This document shows positions 1,523-60,574 of a stretch of 64,000 nt of DNA, one piece after another. Each line of letters starts with the position of its first letter. Positions within the stretch are counted from its first letter, which is position 1. The translations under genes were made by a program, and so were the position numbers. The DNA is from Clostridia bacterium (lineage in GTDB: Bacteria; Bacillota; Clostridia; Christensenellales; CAG-138): NCBI GenBank assembly GCA_045603585.1, contig JAZUMK010000030.1, positions 6,607 through 70,606 on the forward strand, read 5' to 3'. The notes under the pieces were generated by a model, which saw only the letters and a program-made list of their open reading frames with translations, was not told the origin of the DNA and made no database searches.

Positions 1523-2218
1523 ATGGAAAACAAAAATAACTGCCTTATCTGCGGCGAAGAATTGGAATATTATGATAAGCCCAGAGCCATGAAATGCATG
1601 CTGTGCGGCGGTGAGTTTTACTCCAATGTTGCCTGCAAGGCGGGACACTTTATATGCGACAGCTGCCATTCAAAGGATGCGGAAGGCATAGTACTTGAGG
1701 TGTGTGCCGGAACAGCTTCCCGAAATCCCATCGATATAATGCAGGGTCTTATGGAGCTGCCCGGGGTGCACATGCATGGTCCTGAGCATCACTTTATGGT
1801 GGGCGCTGCGCTGCTGGCGGCATATCATAACAGCGGCGGCGAGATAGAACTGCGTCCCGCACTTGACGAGATGCTGCGTCGGGGCAAACAGGTACCGGGC
1901 GGTGCCTGCGGGTTCTGGGGCTGCTGCGGTGCCGGAGTCAGCGCAGGCATATTTATAAGCATCATCACAGGAGCTACCCCCCTTAAAAAACAGGAATGGC
2001 GGTTAGCCAATCTTATGACATCCAGAGCCTTGGAGCGCATCGCAAACTGCGGCGGCCCCCGCTGCTGCAAGCGGGACAGCTTTCTGGCGATAATCGCCGC
2101 TGTGGAGTTTACGAGAGAAAACCTTGGCGTGGAGATGTGGCTGCCAGAGCATATCCAATGCGGATTTTCAGGATTGAATAATGAGTGCCTTGGAAAGGCT
2201 TGCCTGTTTAACCGCTAA
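1523..2218 (+). CDS. Uncharacterised Cys-rich protein with an N-terminal zinc-ribbon (CxxC-x15-CxxC)
   Basis: The 231-aa protein has CLICGEE...CMLCGG and CDSCH motifs plus further Cys clusters (GGACGFWGCCGAG, CGGPRCCKRD). I recognise no enzymatic motif. Confidence 0.6.
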   Translation: MENKNNCLICGEELEYYDKPRAMKCMLCGGEFYSNVACKAGHFICDSCHSKDAEGIVLEVCAGTASRNPIDIMQGLMELPGVHMHGPEHHFMVGAALLAAYHNSGGEIELRPALDEMLRRGKQVPGGACGFWGCCGAGVSAGIFISIITGATPLKKQEWRLANLMTSRALERIANCGGPRCCKRDSFLAIIAAVEFTRENLGVEMWLPEHIQCGFSGLNNECLGKACLFNR

Positions 2219-2245: not shown

Positions 2246-3469
2246 ATGACTAAAGAAAAAAGCTTAGCCTCGAATTATAAAGTCCTTCGCTGGGGATACC
2301 TTGCGCTCTGTACCCTCCTGCTGCTGTTTCTGGGGCTTATTTACGCATGGTCTGTATTCCGTATACCCCTTGAAACAGAGTTCGGCTGGACGGCTTCTCA
2401 GGCCTCTCTGGTGTTCTCGGTAAGCATGATGCTGTTCTGCCTTGGCGGCCTTGCTTCCGGCATAATGCAGAGAAGGCTCAGCATCCGCATAACAGTGATC
2501 TGCAGCGCGGTGTGCATGCTGGCGGGCTTTTCCGCGGCCTCTATGGCAAAGGGACTGCTGGGCATCTGCTGTACATACAGCCTTCTCTGCGGCCTGGGCG
2601 TTGGTCTTGGCTACAATTCCTGCCTCAGCGTGGTAATGTCATGGTTCCCCGATAAAAAGGGACTGGTTTCCGGCATTGCCCTGATGGGATTTGGTTTTGG
2701 AGGCATGGTATTCGGCACATTGAGCGCAAACCTTATCGGCTCCATAGGCTGGCGCAAAACCTTCCTTATTTTTGGGTTTGTGTTCTTTGCTGTAATCCTC
2801 ATAGGCGCCTTTATCCTTAAGGTCGCTCCTGCCGAATTCGCCGCAAAAATGGCCGCAGGCAATAAGGCAAAGGCATCCCTCAGGGAGATGGATTGGAAGC
2901 AGATGATGAAATGCCGTCAGTTCTGGCTGTATTTTGCATGGGCCATAATTCTTTCCGCAGCAGGTCTTGCGGTAATGAACGAGGCCGCTTCCTTTGCCCA
3001 GTGCTTTGTTGGGGAGAATCTTGCAAGAGCTGCCGCTCTTGCAGGCATGGTATCCATTGCAAACGGCGTGGGCCGCATAATTTTCGGCCAGCTGTTTGAC
3101 AGGATAGGCTATCGCAAAACCATGCTGGGCGTTTGCACTATGTTCATCTGCGCATCCGGCGCGCTGCTTCTTGCAAACAGCACCATGAGCATACCTGTGC
3201 TGGCGGCAGGCTTCATTTTCCTTGGCCTTGCCTATGGCGGCGTTACCCCCACAAATTCCGCGTATGCTTCTTATTTCTTCGGCACTAAGAATTACGCATT
3301 CAACTTCAGCCTTGTAAATCTTAACCTTATCATAGCCTCTTATCTGGGGCCTGCCTGCGGCAGCCTTTCATATGCGGGCACGTTCCTTGTTATATTGGCC
3401 TTCGGCGCAATGGGCATTGCGATAACCTTTGGCATCAAGGAATACAAGGATTCTGAAATACAGGCATAA
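2246..3469 (+). CDS. MFS transporter (oxalate/formate antiporter-like subfamily)
   Basis: The 407-aa protein has about 12 predicted hydrophobic segments and a central loop, which is an MFS-like pattern. Confidence 0.85.
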   Translation: MTKEKSLASNYKVLRWGYLALCTLLLLFLGLIYAWSVFRIPLETEFGWTASQASLVFSVSMMLFCLGGLASGIMQRRLSIRITVICSAVCMLAGFSAASMAKGLLGICCTYSLLCGLGVGLGYNSCLSVVMSWFPDKKGLVSGIALMGFGFGGMVFGTLSANLIGSIGWRKTFLIFGFVFFAVILIGAFILKVAPAEFAAKMAAGNKAKASLREMDWKQMMKCRQFWLYFAWAIILSAAGLAVMNEAASFAQCFVGENLARAAALAGMVSIANGVGRIIFGQLFDRIGYRKTMLGVCTMFICASGALLLANSTMSIPVLAAGFIFLGLAYGGVTPTNSAYASYFFGTKNYAFNFSLVNLNLIIASYLGPACGSLSYAGTFLVILAFGAMGIAITFGIKEYKDSEIQA

Positions 3470-3475
3470 ATGCAA

Positions 3476-3510
3476 TTTAAAAGGCGCGACAGCATGTCGC
3501 GCCTTTTTGT
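3476..3510. terminator. Bidirectional intrinsic terminator between the convergent MFS and lyase genes
   Basis: GGCGCGAC-agcat-GTCGCGCC (3483-3503) is flanked by an A-run on the left and a T-run on the right. Confidence 0.8.
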
Positions 3511-3522
3511 GTATGCCTTGTA

Positions 3523-4968
3523 TTACAGGCTGTCGCCGAAGTCTCTGCGGAAGGCTTCTGCAAGCTGCTGCTGCCAGTCGCTGTCCGCTTCAAGCCTGCC
3601 GAAGAAGAAGCGGAGGGTATTGGGCTCTTCCACCCAGCGGAGGCCGCCGATAAGGTGGCGGTTGCGGAACAGCCAGTCAATGCGGTCTACGGCGTACATT
3701 ACCTGGGACAGGGTGAATACACGGCGGGGGAGGGCAAGGCGAACAAGCTCCATGGATGCGATGGGCTCTGTTCCGTCAGGCTCGCGCTGCTCGGAAAGGG
3801 TGCCGCGCTCCATTCCGCGAACGCCGCTTGCGATGTAAATAGCCGCCGCAAGGGCGCCTGCAGGGTACTGATGATCATCCAGATGGGGCAGGAACTCTCT
3901 GGCATTCAGATGGCAGCCAAGGCCGCCTGCGGGGGTCACAACGGGTATGCCCCGCTTGAGAAGCTCCTCCGTCATGAACTGAATGAACTGGGGGCCCTGG
4001 CTGATCACGTCTTCATCCATGGTCTCATCAAGGCCCACGGTGATGGCTTCCATTTCCCGCACGCTCATGCCGCCGTAGGTAAGGAAGCCTTCAAACATGG
4101 GGATAAGCTCCATCATGCGGTCGCGGAGGGCCTTATCCCTTACGCAGATACCGCCGCCCCGGGCAAAGCCCAGCTTGCGGGCGGAGAAGTATACGATGTC
4201 AAAGCAATCTGCAAGGGCGCGGGTGATTTCCCGGATGGACATATCCCTGCATTCTTCCTCGCGGGTTTTGATAAAGTGGAGATTATCCTGCAGCAGGCTT
4301 GCATCCAGCACCGTCATAATGCCGTTATCATGGGCAAGCCTGGTTGCGGCCTTGCAGTTTTCAAGGGAGAATGGCTGGCCGCCGATAAGGTTTGTGCCTG
4401 CTTCAAGGCGAAGGAAGGCCATATGCCCCCTGTTGCGGTCAATGCTGTCCTGAAGCTTATCAAGATCCATGTTGCCCTTGAAAAGGCAGCTGCTTGCGGT
4501 GTTGATACCTTCGTCGCTGACAAGCTCCTCCACGGTTCCGCCGCATTCGGTTATATGTGCCTTGGTGGTGGTAAAGTGGAAATTCATGGCAACCACGTCG
4601 CCGCTTTTTACGAAAGTTTTTGCGATGATATGTTCGGCAGCCCTGCCCTGATGGGTGGGCAGGAAGAATTCCATGCCGAATATCTCCCTGAGCTTTGCAT
4701 GGAGGCGGTTGAAGGTTTCGCTGCCTGCGTATGCGTCATCTGCCGCCATCATGGCAGCAAGCTGATTGTCGCTCATGGCATTTACGCCGCTGTCGGTCAG
4801 CATATCCATGAATACGTCGCGGGTCTGAAGCAGGAAGGTGTTGCAGCCGGCCTCCCGAATGGCCTCGAGGCGACGCTCTACCGGGGGCAGGTTCAGCTTC
4901 TGTACGATGCGCACCTTGTGCATTTCCAGAGGGATGTTTTCGCCGCTGAAGAATTTTACGTTGGACAT
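3523..4968 (-). CDS. tpl: Beta-eliminating PLP lyase of the tyrosine phenol-lyase type
   Basis: The 481-aa protein is collinear with the Tnase/TPL family (TDSGVNAMSD, PTHQGRAAE, SARK PLP-lysine region, LALPRRV). Both known specificity positions are TPL-like. NFHFTTTKAH carries Thr where tryptophanase has FFDTT Asp. LRFFFGRL carries Phe where tryptophanase has LRHF His. Confidence 0.85.
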   Translation of the reverse strand: MSNVKFFSGENIPLEMHKVRIVQKLNLPPVERRLEAIREAGCNTFLLQTRDVFMDMLTDSGVNAMSDNQLAAMMAADDAYAGSETFNRLHAKLREIFGMEFFLPTHQGRAAEHIIAKTFVKSGDVVAMNFHFTTTKAHITECGGTVEELVSDEGINTASSCLFKGNMDLDKLQDSIDRNRGHMAFLRLEAGTNLIGGQPFSLENCKAATRLAHDNGIMTVLDASLLQDNLHFIKTREEECRDMSIREITRALADCFDIVYFSARKLGFARGGGICVRDKALRDRMMELIPMFEGFLTYGGMSVREMEAITVGLDETMDEDVISQGPQFIQFMTEELLKRGIPVVTPAGGLGCHLNAREFLPHLDDHQYPAGALAAAIYIASGVRGMERGTLSEQREPDGTEPIASMELVRLALPRRVFTLSQVMYAVDRIDWLFRNRHLIGGLRWVEEPNTLRFFFGRLEADSDWQQQLAEAFRRDFGDSL

Positions 4969-5049
4969 TTTGAGTTTCCTCCTGAAAAAATAAAAGTTTG
5001 ATTTTTTCGGAGGTACCCTTTGGCGGCGATACCGGCCGATAAAATATCG

Positions 5050-5351
5050 GGAACAAAAAAGCCCGTCCCCTGACTTTGCAGAGGACGAGCGCCAAATCCC
5101 GTGTTACCACCTCAATTTATCCGGTTCTCACGATACCGGACCTTTTCGAGTACCCCAATGCGGCAGCTGCCGCCCCTATACTCTATCACTGTAACGGGTG
5201 AAGCCCGTCCCCGCCTACCGGTTGCCTTTCGGGGGGAGGCTGGTGGCGTGTATTCCCATGCGGCAGCCTGTTGACTTGCACCAACCGTCAACTCTCTGAA
5301 GGTCCCGTTCATGGTACTATTTCGCCGTCATGGCCTTTTCAATACCAATTG
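5050..5351 (-). promoter_or_regulatory. T-box leader (tRNA-sensing riboswitch) with probable Tyr (UAC) specifier and terminator/antiterminator
   Basis: On the minus strand I read, in order:
- A promoter: TTGACA (5386-5381), a 17-nt spacer, TATAAT (5363-5358).
- An AGAGAG bulge (5297-5292).
- A distal hairpin GTTGAC..GGTTGGTGCAA..GTCAAC.
- A specifier-loop context GGGAA-UAC-A (codon at 5252-5250).
- An F-box CCGTTA (5207-5202).
- A T-box core GAGGTGGTAACACGGG (5113-5098).
- A terminator GTCCTCTGCAAAGTCAGGGGAC followed by a U-run (5093-5053). Confidence 0.75.
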
Positions 5352-5425
5352 CGTTGAATTATATATTATCCATCCGGCTTTGTCAAGCGAATAAATATTT
5401 TATTTTTTATGGCATTGTAGATTAA

Positions 5426-6298
5426 TTATGCAGAGAGATTGTCCTTTGCGTTTTTGACTTTCAAATAGGGCAGGGCAATGCTGGACACTATCAGCACAAG
5501 GCCGATAATACTGAGAAGCCCCAGCTTTTCATGCAGTACCACAGCTCCAAGCAGTGTGGCGATAGCGGGATTTATGGCGCAGAAAAGGCCTGCTCTGTCT
5601 GCAGAAACCCGGCTCTGGGCCACCGGCTGCAGGGTAAAGCCAAATCCTGTGCACACTATGGCAAGTTCCAATATCATCAGTATGCTGCTGCCGTCCGAGG
5701 GAATGCGGGGCTGCTCAAAGATAAAGGATGCAATCAGAGCATAAACGGCAATGGAGCCAACTTGAGCTATGCCTATGCATAGAGAATCACAATCCCTGTG
5801 GGCTACCCGGTCGGTGATAAGTATTGCCGCGGCATAAAGCAGGGCGGACATGAGCCCCCAGAACATACCTATGGTAAAGCTGCCTATTTGAGCGCCAAGA
5901 CAGAATACGCCGGTAAGGGCCATAACGGCACTGCATATGGTCATGGGAGCGGGCAGCTTTTTAGCGAGTATTGCGCCGAAAAGGGGCACAAATATTATGG
6001 AGCAGTTTTCCAGCAGGGATACGGTGGTGGTATCTGCGGTATGGAGGGCGGTAAGCTCGCAGCTCATTACCAGAAAATACATCAGCCCAACGATGCATCC
6101 CGCAAGGAGATCCTGCTTTGTGATATGCGAAACCCGTTTTGGGAAAATTATAAGCAGCAAAATAAATGCTGAGAGGAATCTCAGAGCCAGCAGGTTGAAG
6201 GTGTCAAGGCTGGCCAAAGACATCTTGGTAAAAATAAATGATGTGGCGCGGGCTGCGATAACAGAGGCCAGCAGCAGCTCATACTTGCGGGAGGACAT
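5426..6298 (-). CDS. EamA/DMT-family transporter
   Basis: The 290-aa protein has about ten hydrophobic segments arranged as two EamA-like halves. Confidence 0.85.
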   Translation of the reverse strand: MSSRKYELLLASVIAARATSFIFTKMSLASLDTFNLLALRFLSAFILLLIIFPKRVSHITKQDLLAGCIVGLMYFLVMSCELTALHTADTTTVSLLENCSIIFVPLFGAILAKKLPAPMTICSAVMALTGVFCLGAQIGSFTIGMFWGLMSALLYAAAILITDRVAHRDCDSLCIGIAQVGSIAVYALIASFIFEQPRIPSDGSSILMILELAIVCTGFGFTLQPVAQSRVSADRAGLFCAINPAIATLLGAVVLHEKLGLLSIIGLVLIVSSIALPYLKVKNAKDNLSA

Positions 6299-47613: not shown

Positions 47614-47780
47614 TGTATAAAAACTCCTGAAAATAAATGAGGATGGAACAAATCAAACCGGGGGATACCCGGTTTGATGGGATATGCATAAATTCCTGTT
47701 ATAAAATCGTGCGCAGCATGCGATAAAAACGACAAGCTTTCATGGAAAGCAGCCGATTTTATATAACTGATTATACGGGC

Positions 47781-48551
47781 CTAAACGGCAACTTCCGCAT
47801 TGGATGCCGCGGCCTTTTTATCCTTCAGATACCACGGCAGATATGCAAGGCCGAACATGAGGGTGATTACCGCCACTATGATGGCAACCCGCAGAGCGTA
47901 GTTGGGGGGCAGAATATCCAGCACGGAGGGGGCGCTTTCGGGGCGGGCCATGTAGAGGTAGTTTGCTCCGGGAATCATGATGTTTACCCATGTTGCAATG
48001 CCTGCCATTATCCACAGCGCACAGTAGGAGCGTATCATCGAGCGTATATTGGGCCTGAATCCATGGACGAAAATCATATAGAAAATCGCCACATAGCCCA
48101 GGGTATGCTCCAGCCAGAACTGATAATAGCGGAAGCGGGTGGGGCCGCAATAGGTGAGGGGAGTGGGGGTGAGCAGGGCAAACAGGGAGCCGGACAGCAG
48201 CCAGAAATAGGCGATGTCAAACAGCTTCTGGCTTTTGCCGATTATCATGAAGGAGCAGAAGATCACCGCCCAGCCGCATACGCCTATGGGAAGATTGGAT
48301 ATGGGGCCTTCGGAAAGCCAGGGGCAGGCCGCCAGACGCCAATAGAAGGACATATCGCATATGATAAGCATAAAGCCCAGTATATAGCGTATGTTGGTTT
48401 CATAGCGGGAGTTTCTCAGGGGCTCGCGATACCTGTGCAGCAAGAACAGCGCAATGAGCAGCAGCAGTATGGGGGCAAAATGGGCGGGGGTGAATATCGC
48501 AAACTCCGGCTCGGTTCCCACGCCGAAAAAATAGGTCAAAAATTCTTTCAT
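47781..48551 (-). CDS. Conserved integral membrane protein (YwaF/TIGR02206-like, from memory)
   Basis: It has about seven hydrophobic segments. I place the start at MKEFLTYFF. Confidence 0.65.
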   Translation of the reverse strand: MKEFLTYFFGVGTEPEFAIFTPAHFAPILLLLIALFLLHRYREPLRNSRYETNIRYILGFMLIICDMSFYWRLAACPWLSEGPISNLPIGVCGWAVIFCSFMIIGKSQKLFDIAYFWLLSGSLFALLTPTPLTYCGPTRFRYYQFWLEHTLGYVAIFYMIFVHGFRPNIRSMIRSYCALWIMAGIATWVNIMIPGANYLYMARPESAPSVLDILPPNYALRVAIIVAVITLMFGLAYLPWYLKDKKAAASNAEVAV

Positions 48552-48663
48552 AAGAGTTCTCCGCAAGTTTATTTATTTAATTGTACCATATCATATACCT
48601 CTGAGGTTATATATAAATACGGAGGTACAGTGAGGGCGTGCCCCGGAGAAGGGCGTTTTGCAT

Positions 48664-48692
48664 TAAAAAAGCACCGCAAGGTGCTTTTGTGC
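48664..48692. terminator. Bidirectional intrinsic terminator
   Basis: AAAAAAGCACCgcaaGGTGCTTTTG. Confidence 0.75.
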
Positions 48693-48707
48693 GTGATGCA
48701 ATATTCG

Positions 48708-49175
48708 CTATGTGCGCAAGGTGGCCCTGAGGCGGTCGGTTTTGATGAGCAGGTCAAGGGCATCCTCTATCGATGTAACCACCACGTCCGCATGGGACAG
48801 CAGAGCGCCGCAGCAGCCTTCCCTGCCTATAACGCATATGGAAAGGTCGCACACATCCGACATCTGAATGTCATTGAAGCCGTTGCCGATGCAGGCCACG
48901 CCTCCGGTAAGCTGGCGGGCTTCCTCTGCCTTGATTTCGCCGACACGGGTGGTGGGAAATGCCCTTACCTCAAGGGGAAGACTTCCGCAGTTTTTTGCTG
49001 CGGTGCCGTGGGTGTCGGCGGTGATAACGTAAATATCCAGATGTTTGCTGAGAATTTCCAGCTGAGGAATGATTTCGGGTATCACTTTGCCGTCAAGGGC
49101 GATGGTGCCGTTATAGTCCAGTATAAGATGGCTGATGGTGAATTCATCGCGGCCGGGAATACGTATGGTAAACAT
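48708..49175 (-). CDS. HAD-superfamily phosphatase-like protein (soluble P-type-ATPase-like)
   Basis: It has LILDYNGTIA (the DxxGT motif) and the C-terminal GNGFNDIQM (the GDGxND-like motif). Confidence 0.7.
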   Translation of the reverse strand: MFTIRIPGRDEFTISHLILDYNGTIALDGKVIPEIIPQLEILSKHLDIYVITADTHGTAAKNCGSLPLEVRAFPTTRVGEIKAEEARQLTGGVACIGNGFNDIQMSDVCDLSICVIGREGCCGALLSHADVVVTSIEDALDLLIKTDRLRATLRT

Positions 49176-49432
49176 GATTTTACCTCGTAACTTTAAATTG
49201 CGGGAGCTGCGTCATAAATTGACGTAACTCAATAAGCAGAGTAGCATTTTTAATGGAAGCATGTCAACCGGCTTCCTTTTATTTGAGCGGATATCCAGAT
49301 AAATATGTAAAACCATGGTATAATATTAACACCGAATAATCGGGGGGGGGCGCGCTGAACATGGCAGCAATTCGATATAAAGATTTGCGCTTCAGCTGCT
49401 GAACTGCACTGCAAAACCCTGAGGAGACCGAC

Positions 49433-56073: not shown

Positions 56074-56694
56074 TTATCTAACCCTGATCAAAAGCAGCCT
56101 GCCCTCCTTGACGGACACTGCGGCTTTTTGGCCGGGCAGTACTTCGTTGCTTATGCCGTACTGATATTCGCAGGATATTTCAGCATCTGTCAGGGGATAC
56201 TTTGCCCCGGTGATGGTGATGCCTTTGGCGAGGCCTGTGATATTCAGAAGAGAAAAGAAGGGGTATTCATCATGGATGTAAACCGGCTGATGGGATACTA
56301 TTTCCATTTCGGAATAATCGTCTATGATACGGCCCTTCTTACCCAGCGAATCCAGATACAGCAGAATGGACACATTGCCCAATGTGTGGTCAAGCCTTGC
56401 ACCAATAACGCCTATTAAAAGAAAATCATCAAAGCCCCTTTTAACGGCCTCTTTTACCGCATACACGGTATCAGTGTCATCCTTTTCCCGGGGAAGGACG
56501 ATGGTTTCCACATCCATATTTGGGTTTTCGTGGGAATCAAAATCGCCTACGATCAAGCCGGGTGCTGCCTGAAGGTGCTCCAGGTGTTTCAGGCCGCTGT
56601 CGCAGAAGATCACATAGTCATCCTCGCGAAGCAGAGTACGGATATATTCATAGTTGTTTATGTCGGCACCGCCAACTATTACACAGCGTCTCAT
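56074..56694 (-). CDS. thiN: Thiamine pyrophosphokinase
   Basis: It has VIVGGADIN...IFCDSGLKH...GDFDS motifs. The start ATG forms an ATGA overlap with the thiD stop. Confidence 0.85.
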   Translation of the reverse strand: MRRCVIVGGADINNYEYIRTLLREDDYVIFCDSGLKHLEHLQAAPGLIVGDFDSHENPNMDVETIVLPREKDDTDTVYAVKEAVKRGFDDFLLIGVIGARLDHTLGNVSILLYLDSLGKKGRIIDDYSEMEIVSHQPVYIHDEYPFFSLLNITGLAKGITITGAKYPLTDAEISCEYQYGISNEVLPGQKAAVSVKEGRLLLIRVR

Positions 56695-57497
56695 CGTTTG
56701 TTTACCGTCCATTCTTCTTTAATGTCAAATGCGTGATCCATAGGCCCTGACCCACTGCCCAGATCGAGCATTGCAGACAGGGCGCCGCAGATATAGTCTT
56801 TTGCCCTTTGCACGGACTCTGCAAGGGTAAATCCCTTGGCAAGGTTGGCGGCAATGGCGCTGGACAGGGTGCAGCCCGTACCGTGGGTGTTGGGATTGTC
56901 TATGCGCCTGCCCTTAAACCAAATCATGCTGCCATTTTCATAAAGCAGATCATTTGCATCGTTGATGCTGTGGCCGCCTTTGAGCAGGACAGCACAATGA
57001 TAGCTGTCGCCTATCTGCTTTGCTGCTGCCATCATATCATCCTTGGAGCTTATTGTCAGGCCGGAGAGGACCTGCGCTTCAGGGATGTTGGGCGTCACAA
57101 GGGCAGAGAGGGGGAACAGCTCTTCTATAAGGGTTTGCACCGCATCGGTTTTCATCAATGCGGAGCCGGAGGTTGCCACCATTACAGGGTCAACCACTAT
57201 ATTCCTTGCATTATAATATCTCAGCCTGTCTGCAATTACACGGATAAGCTCGCAGGATGCCACCATGCCTATCTTTACGGCATCCGGATAAATGTCTTCA
57301 AATACGGCATCCAGCTGCTGCTGTAAAAATTCCGGTGTGGATTCCTGAATTGCCCTCACGCCGGTTGTGTTTTGCGCCGTCAGCGCCGTAATTGCGCTCA
57401 TGGCGTAAACGCCGTTCATGGTCATGGTTTTGATATCGGCCTGAATACCGGCGCCTCCGCTGCAGTCGCTGCCTGCAATGGTCAATGCTGTTTTCAT
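56691..57497 (-). CDS. thiD: Hydroxymethylpyrimidine/phosphomethylpyrimidine kinase
   Basis: It has ALTIAGSDCSGGAGIQADIKT and GTGCTLSSAIAA. Confidence 0.9.
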   Translation of the reverse strand: MKTALTIAGSDCSGGAGIQADIKTMTMNGVYAMSAITALTAQNTTGVRAIQESTPEFLQQQLDAVFEDIYPDAVKIGMVASCELIRVIADRLRYYNARNIVVDPVMVATSGSALMKTDAVQTLIEELFPLSALVTPNIPEAQVLSGLTISSKDDMMAAAKQIGDSYHCAVLLKGGHSINDANDLLYENGSMIWFKGRRIDNPNTHGTGCTLSSAIAANLAKGFTLAESVQRAKDYICGALSAMLDLGSGSGPMDHAFDIKEEWTVNKR

Positions 57498-57507
57498 GGC
57501 GAACTCC

Positions 57508-57804
57508 TTACCTGTACTTGCCGGTTTTCTGCTCAATGGTGAGGATATCGCCCTCGGGACGGTAAACGGCCTTTATATAGGCGGATACCTTGGGTGCGCC
57601 GGAGCGGACGGCTACCTTAAGGCATTCTTTGGCAATATCCATAAGCTCATCATAGCTTTCTCCCTCAATGGTGGTTTCAAAGGCCGCCACCTGATAGGTG
57701 AGACCGGTGCTTTGGATGTAGGCGATCACCTCATCCACAATGCGGCATACTTCCGCATCCGTGTCAACATTAGGCAAAACCTGAATGGCAATGCTTGCGC
57801 TCAT
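57508..57804 (-). CDS. MTH1187/YkoF-like small thiamine-binding protein
   Basis: The 98-aa protein has an ACT-like ferredoxin fold pattern (IAIQVLP...). Its position inside a thi operon supports the call. Confidence 0.7.
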   Translation of the reverse strand: MSASIAIQVLPNVDTDAEVCRIVDEVIAYIQSTGLTYQVAAFETTIEGESYDELMDIAKECLKVAVRSGAPKVSAYIKAVYRPEGDILTIEQKTGKYR

Positions 57805-57852
57805 ATGATCTCCTCCTGATTCATATTGATTTTATCTGCGGTTATTTCAGCC

Positions 57853-58512
57853 CTATTTATGAGCCACCATCTCTTTTGCAAGCTCTAAAAGCTGCGCTGT
57901 TGCCTTGCCGGGATCATCCGTCGCAAATATGGCGGATACCACCGCAACGCCATCCACACCGCTGTCTGACAGCTCCATAAGGTTATTTGCATTGATGCCG
58001 CCTATGGCAACCACTGGTATGGACACGGCACGGCAGATTTCTTTCAGCCGTTCCATCGTCATATTGCGGGCGTTTTTCTTGGTATCGGTTCCAAACACGG
58101 CGCCTGCGCCGATGTAATCCGCACCTGCGGCCTCAGCGTTAATGGCTTCCTCCACAGTACCTGCGGATATGCCGAGTATCTTGTCCGCTCCTATGATGCT
58201 TCTGATATCTCTGCCCTTTATATCCGACTGACCAACGTGAACTCCGTCCGCCTGAATTGCAAGGGCGATCTCCACGCTGTCGTTGACCACATAGGGCACA
58301 TTGCAGCGGGCACAAAGTTCTTTAAGCTTTGCTGCTTCCACTTCAAATGAAGCTGCATCCAAATCCTTTTCCCGTATCTGAAGAAAGGTCGCACCGTTTG
58401 AAAGTACTTCCTCGCATACGCTGAGGAGAGTATGGCCTTGCTTCAGCCGGCTTTGATCCGTCACCGCATAGAGAAGCATGGCGTTGCGTATATCATCTTT
58501 TGAAAACTTCAT
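57853..58512 (-). CDS. thiE: Thiamine-phosphate synthase
   Basis: It has LYAVTD, FLQIREKDL, ADGVHVGQSD and VAIGGI motifs. Confidence 0.9.
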   Translation of the reverse strand: MKFSKDDIRNAMLLYAVTDQSRLKQGHTLLSVCEEVLSNGATFLQIREKDLDAASFEVEAAKLKELCARCNVPYVVNDSVEIALAIQADGVHVGQSDIKGRDIRSIIGADKILGISAGTVEEAINAEAAGADYIGAGAVFGTDTKKNARNMTMERLKEICRAVSIPVVAIGGINANNLMELSDSGVDGVAVVSAIFATDDPGKATAQLLELAKEMVAHK

Positions 58513-59317
58513 ATTTTGCTCCTTTTATAAGCTGCTGTTCTGTAAGGTTGAATACCGCGTCTATCAAATCATTTCGGAAGGTGGCGTTGCCTGTGCCGTT
58601 ATGCAGACGTTTTTCTTCGGCTGTTTCGCCGCATATGCCCATGGCCGCCATGGCGGAGCAGGCTGCAAGATAGTGATCCTTATAAGCTCCGCAAAATGCA
58701 CCGATAAGAGAGGTAAGCATGCAGCCGCTTCCGGTGATGCGTGCCATGGTGGGGCAGCCGTTATACAGCACACAGGTCTTATTTCCGTTGGAGATCACAT
58801 CGATTTTCCCTGAGATGGCGATAACTGTTCCAAGCTTCTTGGAAAGCTCTGCCGCCATTGTAATTGCAGATTGGAGGTTATCCTCGGTGATCTCATCCGC
58901 ACAGCTTACATCCACGCCGCTGCCGGCGGCCTGCTGTCCCGCAAGATAACGGATTTCGGATGCGTTTCCCCGGATCACGGCAAAATGTATCAGGTCAAGC
59001 AGCCGCTTTACCGCATCCCGCCTGAGCTGAGTTCCTCCGCAGCCCACAGGGTCAAGTATTACGGGCCTGCCCAGCCTGTTGGCTTGCTTTCCGGCCAGTA
59101 TCATGGCGTCTACGTTGTCTATTGCACCCATGTTGCACACCAGCGCCTGAGCGTCACTTACCGCTTCTTCCACTTCCATAGGGTGGGAGGCCATGGTGGG
59201 GCTGCCGCCGGATGCAAGTATGATATTGGCGCAGTCATTGACCGTTACAAAGTTTGTGATGCACTGCACCAGCGGCCTGCTGCTTCGAACAGCAGATAAT
59301 ACTTTTTCAATATCCAT
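58493..59317 (-). CDS. thiM: Hydroxyethylthiazole kinase
   Basis: It has VQCITNFVTVNDCANIILASGGSPTMA. I place the start at MDIEKVL, by frame arithmetic from the ORF track, immediately after the thiW stop. Confidence 0.88.
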   Translation of the reverse strand: MDIEKVLSAVRSSRPLVQCITNFVTVNDCANIILASGGSPTMASHPMEVEEAVSDAQALVCNMGAIDNVDAMILAGKQANRLGRPVILDPVGCGGTQLRRDAVKRLLDLIHFAVIRGNASEIRYLAGQQAAGSGVDVSCADEITEDNLQSAITMAAELSKKLGTVIAISGKIDVISNGNKTCVLYNGCPTMARITGSGCMLTSLIGAFCGAYKDHYLAACSAMAAMGICGETAEEKRLHNGTGNATFRNDLIDAVFNLTEQQLIKGAKYEVFKR

Positions 59318-59319
59318 AC

Positions 59320-59820
59320 CTACTGCTCCATTTCTGACATAAAGCGGCTCATGGCCTTTGAACGCTTCAGTATTATCAGCACCATTACGCCCATGATGCC
59401 GCCCACAACGGCAGAGGGGGTATAGAAGGGGACATAGTACAGGAAGTTTTGAGCATCCAGTCCGTAGAACCACTTCATAAGGGGATAGGAGGCCAATGCT
59501 CCCAGCAATCCGGTTCCGATGATCTCACCTGCGCAGACAAGATAGATGTTTTTTGTTTTTCTCCACAGAAGACCGCCCAATATGGGGCCAAACACAGCCC
59601 CGGTGACGGCCTGGATGGTCCTGCCCGACATCATCCTCATGATGCCGCACAGCAATGCGCTGAGGCAGGCCCACCATGGCCCCAGAAATACGGCGGCAAC
59701 CACGTCCACAAAATGCTGAAAGGGGGCCATGGCGGGGAAGTATACGAAGGAATTTAAAACAAAAGCAAGGCTTGCGAAAAGGGCGCACAGCATCATTTTT
59801 CGGATATTCGAATTTCTCAT
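59320..59820 (-). CDS. thiW: ThiW-like ECF-type S component (thiazole precursor transporter)
   Basis: It is a 166-aa polytopic membrane protein and is the first gene after the TPP riboswitches. Confidence 0.75.
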   Translation of the reverse strand: MRNSNIRKMMLCALFASLAFVLNSFVYFPAMAPFQHFVDVVAAVFLGPWWACLSALLCGIMRMMSGRTIQAVTGAVFGPILGGLLWRKTKNIYLVCAGEIIGTGLLGALASYPLMKWFYGLDAQNFLYYVPFYTPSAVVGGIMGVMVLIILKRSKAMSRFMSEMEQ

Positions 59821-59877
59821 ATGTACTCCTTTGTAAAATCGGGAAACGGGCTGTATTCAGCGACGCTTCCAAAATTG

Positions 59878-60021: not shown

Positions 60022-60160
60022 AAAAAAGCAAGAGGATACCTTTTGCGGTATCCTCCCGGAACAGAGCTGAAGCATTTCCTACGGCGGCATTATCCACATC
60101 AGGTATAAGGGTCGAAGGTAAAGCCTTCCTCTCAGCCTGTCAATACAAGCTCCCCCTTGC
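60022..60160 (-). promoter_or_regulatory. TPP riboswitch (proximal copy) with terminator
   Basis: On the minus strand I read GGGGAGCttgtattgacaggCTGAGAGgaaggctttaccttcGACCCttatACCTGATgtGGATAATGCCgcCGTAGG. The terminator GAGGATACCgcaaaaGGTATCCTC plus a U-run follows at 60055-60022. Confidence 0.85.
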
Positions 60161-60176
60161 ATTTTCGGTTGTAAAG

Positions 60177-60322
60177 CAAAATAAAACAGGAGACCATCCG
60201 CCTTGGATGCCTCCTGTAAAAATCATCGTGTATGACTTCCTACGGCGGCATTATCCGCATCAGGTTATAGGGTCGAAGGTGATCCCTTCCTCTCAGCCTG
60301 TCAGCACAAGCTCCCCTGTATT
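60177..60322 (-). promoter_or_regulatory. TPP riboswitch (distal copy) with its own terminator
   Basis: This is a second near-identical aptamer (GGGGAGCttgtgctgacaggCTGAGAGgaagggatcaccttcGACCCtataACCTGATgcGGATAATGCCgcCGTAGG). The hairpin ACAGGAGGCATCC..GGATGGTCTCCTGT plus UUUUAUUUU follows. Confidence 0.85.
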
Positions 60323-60574
60323 TATTTGTATACATTATACATCTTCCGTATGGATTACTCAAGATGCAATTATGCTGAAAGTGATTATTTATGGTCGGTA
60401 CTGTGATTTTATGATATGTGTGGGCGCAGCATGTAAATATAAATATTACAAGCACTGACGGCTTGCGCCGCTGCCCTTTTTTCTGTATTTGCGGAGTTTG
60501 CTGGCAATACACACCATCACGCCGCTTTATACATGCCGTTTACGTCGATTGCGACTTGCATTGCATGTCGTCAG

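Follow-up and report, generated by a model that had tools for sequence, protein, structure and literature searches.

The founding T-box leader is that of Bacillus subtilis tyrS, which carries a UAC specifier. In the RegPrecise T-box compilation, the targets listed for tyrosine are tyrS, tyrT, tyrA, aro genes, and phhA, with no entry for tpl or tnaA (PMC3766115 supplements). Tyrosine phenol-lyase (abbreviated TPL; EC 4.1.99.2), the enzyme of Citrobacter freundii and Erwinia herbicola that is modeled by TIGR02618, catalyzes a reversible reaction and serves as a routine catalyst for preparing tyrosines from phenols (PMC9262865, PMC13174591). We analyzed a 64,000-nucleotide stretch of DNA from a Clostridia bacterium (assembly GCA_045603585.1, contig JAZUMK010000030.1, positions 6,607 to 70,606; called the window here and numbered from its first nucleotide), in which a gene for a TPL-like lyase on the minus strand is preceded by a T-box leader. 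An earlier interpretation made from the letters alone, referred to here as the sequence-only reading, had described this as a nominally catabolic enzyme wired to tyrosine starvation. We regard it as nearly certain that a tyrosine-responsive T-box controls this lyase-like gene, and we place the probability that the physiological role of the enzyme is the formation of tyrosine from phenol at roughly 0.6.

An Rfam covariance scan matched the window leader to RF00230 over model positions 1 to 219 with a score of 104.1 bits, compared to a gathering score of 93 (E 6.5e-22). The leader was then read against alignment A1, which consists of the window leader and 11 leaders from genome loci whose proteins are 65 to 95% identical. 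The promoter and leader contain the following features.

5386..5358, minus strand: promoter of the sigma-70 type, with TTGACA (5386..5381), a 17-nt spacer, and TATAAT (5363..5358)
5340..5078, minus strand: T-box leader RNA (RF00230) with Stem I, the Stem II region, F-box, Stem III, and antiterminator
5297..5292, minus strand: AG bulge AGAGAG of distal Stem I, aligned to the model consensus cAGAGAg
5286..5275, minus strand: distal loop GGUUGGUGCAAG, aligned to the model consensus GgUUGGUGaaAg
5255..5249, minus strand: 3' strand of the specifier loop, GAA-UAC-A, with the codon UAC at 5252..5250 and the conserved purine A5249
5197..5192, minus strand: F-box CCGUUA, with C150 to A154 invariant in alignment A1
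5111..5099, minus strand: T-box core GGUGGUAACACGG in the antiterminator bulge, with UGGU at 5109..5106
5090..5055, minus strand: intrinsic terminator, a 12-bp stem (5090..5061, 8 G-C pairs) followed by UUUUUU

The promoter matches the consensus at 12 of 12 positions, and the Rfam match begins 18 nt downstream of it. The AGA and GGUG-type positions of the distal Stem I motifs did not vary among the orthologous leaders; from T-box structural work, the AG bulge and distal loop presumably form the platform on which the tRNA elbow docks. In the specifier internal loop, the 5' strand AAAUAGUA, which carries an AGUA S-turn, lies opposite GAA-UAC-A, and the Rfam alignment bounds this loop by GGCG/CGCC below and CCAUG/CAUGG above. 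For the UGGU of the antiterminator bulge, the expected pairing partner is the 3'-terminal ACCA of an uncharged tRNA. The 5' arm of the terminator, GCUCGUCCUCUG, overlaps the 3' arm of the antiterminator, making the two folds mutually exclusive. The minimum free energy fold of the free leader includes the terminator hairpin, so that the default state is expected to be off, and the terminator covaries in the orthologues (pairs 271 to 282 with 291 to 302, RNAalifold). The leader thus has the score, the specifier loop, the AG bulge and distal loop, and the UGGN bulge opposed to a terminator that mark members of RF00230. No tRNA genes were found within the window.

The distribution of this pairing was determined in two sets of loci. 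Of 33 genome loci encoding relatives of the lyase, 30 were testable for an upstream leader, and 11 of these had an Rfam T-box immediately 5' of the orthologue. The same leader was present in L034 to L036, three long contigs with a protein 72% identical, and in L038 and L039, two contigs of complete-genome size. A metagenome scan with the clade alignment provided 80 more loci at 57 to 73% identity, approximately 72 of which were testable upstream. When these were searched with a Stem I covariance model (R1, built on an automatic structure that kept only 5 pairs), leaders were found in 20, all on the coding strand and upstream of the gene. Twelve metagenome loci were rescanned with Rfam; 11 of them were loci with Stem I matches, and 8 of these 11 passed the gathering score. 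The T-box core was still visible in two further loci with truncated upstream sequence. In total, the pairing was found in approximately 35 independent loci, a count that depends on the length of upstream sequence available on each contig. The named sources are Clostridia metagenome-assembled genomes from human, buffalo, chicken, and hare guts, together with Tepidanaerobacteraceae, Tissierellaceae, Peptococcales, Clostridiaceae, and Atopococcus (Lactobacillales). Assemblies with the T-box-linked gene include JAZNUG01, JAFYOP01, JAEDIC01, CALDNN01, JAYFPE01, JBMNGG01, CAJFSP01, CAYRYO01, CAZMBD01, and JBHWOX01. The link persists in members of the Clostridia, Tissierellia, Peptococcales, Tepidanaerobacteraceae, and Lactobacillales. 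The survey of homologues that had been proposed from the window alone thus extended the pairing to several orders. The gut niche suggested with it was too narrow, since T-box-linked members also come from digesters and fermentations as well as from varied animal guts.

The amino acid specificity of the leader was examined by comparing the specifier region among leaders. GAAUACA and GGUGGUA were invariant in all 12 leaders of alignment A1, compared to a mean column identity of 69%, and UAC was kept also in the leaders of L034, L038, and L039, the last two of which read GAAUACG. Of the 20 metagenome leaders, 17 carried (G/A)AA, zero to two extra bases, and UAC followed by a purine. The other three (L080, L086, and L088), all weak matches below the Rfam gathering score, read CAAUUAC(C/G), in which UAC occupies the frame with the codon next to the helix and UUA the other frame. 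RNAalifold detected compensatory changes in 35 of 53 pairs across the 12 leaders. Stem I was then tested by writing its four helices explicitly and counting pairs, with 500 shuffles and partner-slid alignments as controls. Pairing was found in 86.7% of Stem I cells, compared to 64% in the shuffles and 31 to 50% with the partner slid; 14 of 17 pairs showed double (compensatory) changes, and none of the 500 shuffles reached the observed covariation. The helices flanking the specifier loop had compensatory changes in 3 of 4 and 5 of 5 pairs, respectively. Because both framing helices covary, the register of the specifier is fixed.

These data bear directly on the possibility that the leader is specific for tryptophan and the enzyme a tryptophanase. 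A UGG triplet does occur at 5258..5256, immediately ahead of GAA, and the sequence-only reading had itself named it as the alternative codon. This triplet falls inside the upper helix of Stem I, where CAUGG pairs with CCAUG, and that helix varies while UAC stays fixed, reading CUUGG, CCCGG, UUUCC, AUUCU, and so on elsewhere, each with a compensating partner. The tRNA end is also faced by UGGU and not by UGGC. The discriminator base is A73 in bacterial tRNA-Tyr and G in tRNA-Trp, and the final U of UGGU suits the A and not the G. The tryptophan alternative is therefore refuted at the sequence level, and we give it next to no probability. With the covariance search and the leader fold completed, the elements predicted on the minus strand were all found where they had been placed, the gathering score was passed over the full model, the tyrosine codon was confirmed, and the free leader was found to fold into the terminator.

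The lyase unit downstream of the leader consists of the following features.

4983..4977, minus strand: ribosome-binding site AGGAGGA
4968..3523, minus strand: 481-amino-acid protein of the pyridoxal phosphate (PLP)-dependent beta-eliminating-lyase fold (PF01212)
3503..3479, minus strand: GC-rich hairpin GGCGCGAC-n5-GUCGCGCC followed by UUUU, 20 nt past the lyase stop codon, read by eye

The hairpin was absent from a scan for consensus terminators, having only four U residues; it is probably a terminator, and the unit is probably monocistronic. The best solved relatives of the lyase were TPLs (E values of 7e-106 to 1e-101, approximately 39% identity), followed by tryptophan indole-lyases. An AlphaFold model (pLDDT 76), usable for fold and secondary structure only and not for side-chain geometry, superposed best on TPL structures, with TM scores of 0.84 to 0.89. 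The protein failed the TPL equivalog TIGR02618 (411.1 bits versus a cutoff of 720.7) as well as both tryptophanase equivalogs, TIGR02617 (313 bits versus 825.8) and NF053783 (354 bits versus 750). It passed the broad NCBIfam subfamily PRK13238, "tryptophanase" (554 bits versus 285), which explains why most sources name clade members tryptophanase, while some name them tyrosine phenol-lyase. A library clustered at 50% identity contained only two full-length representatives of the clade (62% and 48% identical), the other full-length matches being at most 42% identical. In a neighbor-joining tree, which is a quick distance tree, the clade was monophyletic and separate from the TnaA-type sequences, lying on the side of the family that includes TPL.

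Active-site positions were compared among 119 clade sequences using the numbering of C. freundii TPL. A signature of 17 sites was common to 109 of the 119. Twelve of these sites are as in TPL, comprising the catalytic set Y71, R100, N185, D214, K257, and R404 and the phenol pocket F36, T124, M379, R381, F448, and F449; the other five are altered and fixed in the clade (E69D, R217L, K256R, N262R, and M288F). The PLP lysine, Tyr71, Arg404, Asp214, and Asn185 were invariant in all 119 sequences. In TPL, Thr124 and Arg381 form hydrogen bonds with the hydroxyl of the substrate, over whose ring Phe448 and Phe449 close, and Tyr71 protonates C-gamma (PMC9262865). The two residue contrasts previously read from the window were both correct, the motif FTTT providing Thr at position 124 in place of the Asp of Escherichia coli TnaA and the motif LRFF providing Phe448 in place of its His. 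MERG supplies a third discriminator, Arg381, where TnaA has Ile. Together with the failed TnaA equivalogs, these replacements also oppose a tryptophanase assignment, whose support on the enzyme side is the PRK13238 score and the prevailing source names. The residues of the pocket specific for a 4-hydroxyphenyl group were invariant in all T-box-linked members, and from this conservation the pocket is predicted to retain both the C-beta/C-gamma chemistry and the 4-hydroxyphenyl fit of TPL. The clade also has approximately 25 extra C-terminal residues, with invariant W465, L469, F473, and F477 and a predicted helix at 465 to 477. In TPL, positions 69 and 262 belong to the monovalent-cation site and positions 217 and 256 lie near the PLP; as a speculation, Arg262 with Asp69 might substitute for the cation. 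At approximately 39% identity to solved TPLs and with fixed changes at PLP- and cation-site positions, the catalytic preferences of the clade cannot be assumed from those of C. freundii TPL.

One explanation of the locus is that the enzyme is an ordinary catabolic TPL, converting tyrosine to phenol, pyruvate, and ammonium, and that its T-box has an indirect rationale, such as scavenging of pyruvate or nitrogen during general amino acid starvation. TPLs are its best solved relatives, the catalytic and phenol-pocket residues are conserved, some sources use the TPL name, and the equilibrium of the canonical enzyme lies toward cleavage (PMC13174591). Known phenol-producing gut bacteria, however, Clostridia and Fusobacteria included, carry TPLs with 70% or more identity to the Citrobacter enzyme (PMC6424909). 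The identity of this clade to solved TPLs is approximately 39%, which indicates that the clade is a paralogous family and not a divergent orthologue. A protein search with C. freundii TPL gave only Citrobacter sequences among the best 120 matches listed. The protein also fails the TPL equivalog cutoff. A tyrosine-consuming enzyme induced by uncharged tRNA-Tyr would deepen the shortage that induced it, and yet the wiring is conserved in approximately 35 loci of several orders; this argues that the enzyme supplies tyrosine. Canonical tpl is activated by tyrosine through TyrR in enterobacteria, which is the opposite logic. We therefore consider a catabolic role quite unlikely. The sequence-only reading of a rewired TPL holds for the tyrosine-type pocket residues but not for the family assignment, since the enzyme belongs to a separate clade that fails TIGR02618.

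It is also conceivable that the enzyme forms or cleaves another phenolic or aromatic amino acid, or carries out some other PLP reaction, with tyrosine limitation serving as a proxy signal. Failure of both the TPL and tryptophanase equivalogs would fit this, as would the invariant noncanonical residues at PLP- and cation-site positions and the clade-specific C-terminal helix. Pocket drift is evidently possible: a Lachnospiraceae subclade (L018, L019, L020, and L030) carries F36H and M379T in the ring pocket, never has a T-box, and may, judging from these two residues, act on a different substrate. The only other exception at position 379 was M379K in one locus. Opposed to this explanation are the invariance of the 4-hydroxyphenyl pocket in every T-box-linked member and the codon specificity of T-boxes, which overwhelmingly control genes for the cognate amino acid, as the RegPrecise tyrosine regulon illustrates. 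We consider it unlikely.

Two observations on related proteins were made in the same searches. Among the closest representatives in the clustered library, proteins P0242 to P0256 and P0262 are 850 to 930 amino acids long, contain two beta-eliminating-lyase stretches each at 33 to 37% identity, and look like tandem-fused double lyases. Within the window, the open reading frame (ORF) at 47742..49190 (482 amino acids) was considered as a lyase paralogue and found to be unrelated.

The genes surrounding the lyase-like gene were compared among 121 loci by ORF clustering. Most T-box-linked lyase genes stand alone with an opposite-strand gene downstream, and no conserved neighbors were found in the Firmicute loci beyond close relatives except DUF554, tyrS (one locus), and trpBA (one locus). 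In L017, from Atopococcus, a tyrosine T-box is followed by the lyase-like gene, 23 nt containing AGGAGG, and tyrS (PF00579 plus the TyrRS C-terminal domain); from this spacing, the two genes are predicted to form one operon behind the T-box. In L090, a second promoter with a T-box-like leader comes directly after the tyrosine T-box lyase unit (2380-4728 region, including the trp genes). This second leader has AGAGAG, an AAA-UGG-A (Trp) specifier, GGUGGCACCACG, and a terminator, scores below the Rfam gathering score, and drives trpB (TIGR00263, 633 bits) and a trpA-like ORF; no other trp genes were found within the 6.3 kb covered. Seven WOR-3 or unclassified loci have a cluster of TrpB2 (TIGR01415, 570 bits), a HisC-type aminotransferase, the lyase-like protein, and phosphate butyryltransferase, with gaps of 9 to 40 nt. 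TrpB2 or trpBA thus adjoins the lyase-like gene in L023 to L028, L032, and L090. TrpB2 and TrpBA are indole-condensing enzymes of the last step, HisC is also an aromatic aminotransferase in Bacillus, and the WOR-3 cluster recalls the order trpBA-hisC-tyrA of the B. subtilis aromatic supraoperon. The company of the gene is accordingly that of the last step of aromatic amino acid supply.

The neighbors also bear on an explanation in which the enzyme clears a tyrosine analogue that acts as an antimetabolite by blocking tyrosyl-tRNA synthetase (for example, m-tyrosine, DOPA, or a halogenated or nitrated tyrosine), the resulting uncharged tRNA-Tyr opening the T-box. The regulatory logic suits any drop in tRNA-Tyr charging, and cotranscription with tyrS in L017 fits this explanation as well as it fits salvage. 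TPL-type enzymes accept ring-substituted tyrosines (PMC9262865), and M288F, R217L, K256R, and N262R leave room for an altered substrate preference. On the other hand, the contacts to the para-hydroxyl and the ring are as in true TPL, so tyrosine itself should be destroyed too; the association with TrpB2, trpBA, and HisC is left unexplained, and no particular analogue is known to occur commonly across anaerobic habitats this diverse. We regard removal of an antimetabolite as improbable.

A DUF554 membrane protein of approximately 230 amino acids neighbors the lyase-like gene, on either side, in approximately 8 loci (L096, L058, L060, L084, L105, L106, and L112 among them), and in L096 (1917-2741) its start overlaps the lyase stop codon behind a tyrosine T-box. 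From this position it could be a phenol or tyrosine transporter; no useful literature on DUF554 was found. The tRNA genes near the lyase gene in L111, L005, and L031 were considered as tRNA-Tyr and found to be tRNA-Lys, -Asn, and -Arg. A second T-box in L009 (11572-11824, minus strand) was likewise rejected as related; it has an AUG (Met) specifier and belongs to a met operon convergent with the lyase gene, comprising a Cys/Met PLP enzyme, homoserine O-acyltransferase, homoserine dehydrogenase, and aspartokinase.

Several other genes and RNA elements were recorded in the flanks. In the window, the lyase unit is flanked by a DUF5714 protein gene (1523-2218, plus strand) and, downstream of the lyase gene and convergent with it, a gene for an MFS transporter of the lactate/oxalate-formate type (2246-3469, plus strand), which is also found in the close relatives L001 to L003 and in the distant T-box-less L069. 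An EamA-family transporter gene (5426-6298, minus strand) stops 40 nt short of the T-box promoter and is shared with the closest relatives only. Farther along the window, TPP riboswitch aptamers occur as a tandem pair (67.3 and 63.8 bits; 60059-60327, minus strand) ahead of a thiamine salvage operon (56074-59872, minus strand) composed of a small ORF and genes for hydroxyethylthiazole kinase, TMP synthase, phosphomethylpyrimidine kinase, and thiamin pyrophosphokinase. SAM riboswitches (L004 and L005, 4309-4423, minus strand), a THF riboswitch (L014 503-598, minus strand), and an RNase P RNA (L002 1867-2220, plus strand) were seen beside the lyase-like gene in related loci, all unrelated to the lyase.

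The reading that we favor, tyrosine formation from phenol, would operate as follows. A constitutive promoter would drive a transcription-attenuating T-box leader whose default fold is expected to be the terminator, leaving the lyase silent. Under tyrosine shortage, the Stem I specifier UAC would pair with the GUA anticodon of uncharged tRNA-Tyr, the free ACCA end of this tRNA would stabilize the antiterminator through UGGU, and RNA polymerase would read into the single downstream gene. The job of the lyase would then be the net formation of L-tyrosine from environmental phenol, either by the reverse lyase reaction from phenol, pyruvate, and ammonium or by beta-replacement from phenol and serine, cysteine, or another beta-substituted alanine, which would be thermodynamically easier. 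Since the first route is uphill in canonical TPL and needs millimolar substrates, we consider beta-replacement at least as likely. Phenol is membrane permeant, which may explain the usual absence of an attached transporter. The synthetic direction had been suggested by the sequence-only reading; the tyrS operon, trpBA, the TrpB2-HisC clusters, and the approximately 35 loci lend it circumstantial support. The RNA architecture, the tyrosine specifier, the conserved RNA-gene pairing, and the conserved pocket are shown by the data; the tRNA response, the catalytic direction, the identity of the cosubstrate, and the source of phenol are inferred.

Several results weigh against tyrosine formation from phenol. 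Approximately two-thirds of the sampled clade members have the same active-site signature and no T-box, including the isolates Savagea and Pseudoflavonifractor, and the T-box wiring of the clade is thus lineage specific. A permissive Rfam scan upstream of six T-box-less loci (Savagea, Lachnospiraceae, Epulonipiscium, Pseudoflavonifractor, and a Clostridia metagenome-assembled genome) found no weak T-boxes or other RNA elements. Most loci are monocistronic and have no informative neighbor, and the phosphate butyryltransferase of the WOR-3 cluster fits fermentation as well as it fits salvage. The fixed R217L, K256R, and N262R might reflect another substrate or another reaction, and no biochemical characterization of any clade member was found in the literature searched. 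The equilibrium of canonical TPL favors breakdown, and synthesis is normally carried out at substrate concentrations of 1 to 10 mM (PMC13174591), so the pyruvate/ammonium route may be unfavorable at natural phenol levels. Taken together, we hold it to be an even bet that the clade is a natural phenol-dependent tyrosine synthase built on the TPL scaffold, induced by uncharged tRNA-Tyr and using phenol with serine (or pyruvate plus ammonium); if so, some of the gut and digester community would act as a phenol sink.

The pairing of a T-box with a TPL-like gene was not found in the full-text literature, in which coverage of key T-box reviews is incomplete, and this agrees with the sequence-only reading, whose author knew of no description. 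Full-text searches for T-box with tyrosine phenol-lyase gave incidental co-occurrence only, those for T-box with tryptophanase gave nothing, and those for tyrosine phenol-lyase with riboswitch gave unrelated biotechnology work only; the pairing is not mentioned by Wels et al. (2008). Uncommented entries for these leaders may exist in automated T-box databases. As an RNA, the leader is typical of its family; the new elements are the family of its target and the physiological reading that this implies.

T-box regulons would gain a new class of target gene. For enzyme annotation, the clade is large and sharply bounded and is labeled tryptophanase or TPL by pipelines, and metagenomic estimates of indole or phenol production (uremic toxins) made from those labels would be inflated. 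Phenol is the precursor of phenyl sulfate and is clinically relevant (PMC13230720). If the enzyme runs toward tyrosine, it would provide anaerobes with a one-enzyme route to this amino acid and create a microbial phenol sink, with cross-feeding from phenol producers to tyrosine-limited anaerobes, so that part of the gut and digester community would be a sink for phenol and not a source. A natural enzyme of the TPL fold selected for synthesis at low phenol would also match a current engineering goal in biocatalysis (PMC13174591). The hypothesis is tractable, as the gene is a single ORF and orthologues occur in cultured isolates (Savagea faecisuis, such as CCUG 63563, S. serpentis, and Pseudoflavonifractor sp., such as HCP28S3_F10).

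Compared to the B. subtilis tyrS T-box, the leader is alike in its RF00230 membership, its UAC-purine in GAA context, its UGGN bulge, and its terminator/antiterminator pair, and in L017 it also drives tyrS, as the second gene. It differs in that its first and usually sole target is a TPL-like PLP lyase and not a synthetase gene, biosynthetic operon, or transporter gene. Compared to canonical TPL, the clade shares the fold, the catalytic set, and the phenol pocket and differs in its low identity, the five fixed substitutions, the C-terminal helix extension, and, in the T-box-linked members, control by tyrosine shortage. The nearest regulatory precedent is phenylalanine-4-hydroxylase (phhA), a tyrosine-forming enzyme filed as catabolic whose gene is T-box controlled in the Bacillus cereus group (PMC2494555). 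The likeness is that such an enzyme is put under a T-box because its product is tyrosine; phhA, in contrast, encodes an unrelated enzyme that hydroxylates phenylalanine aerobically in one group of aerobes, whereas the lyase clade occurs mostly in anaerobes.

The closest metabolic parallel is indole salvage by TrpB, TrpBA, and TrpB2, for example, by stand-alone TrpB2 or by chlamydial trpBA, which uses indole from the microbiota. In both cases, as proposed here for the lyase clade, a scavenged ring would be condensed with a three-carbon unit in one PLP-dependent step induced by shortage of the product, although the lyase clade has PLP fold type I and TrpB fold type II. No demonstration of a natural tyrosine counterpart of this salvage was found in the literature searched. 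An engineered "tyrosine synthase" evolved from Thermotoga TrpB has, as cited in PMC13174591, no lyase activity (Almhjell et al. 2024). If the clade uses serine and phenol, its proposed net reaction would be the same as that of the engineered enzyme, which is a laboratory product on a TrpB scaffold, whereas the lyase clade is natural and built on the scaffold of TPL.

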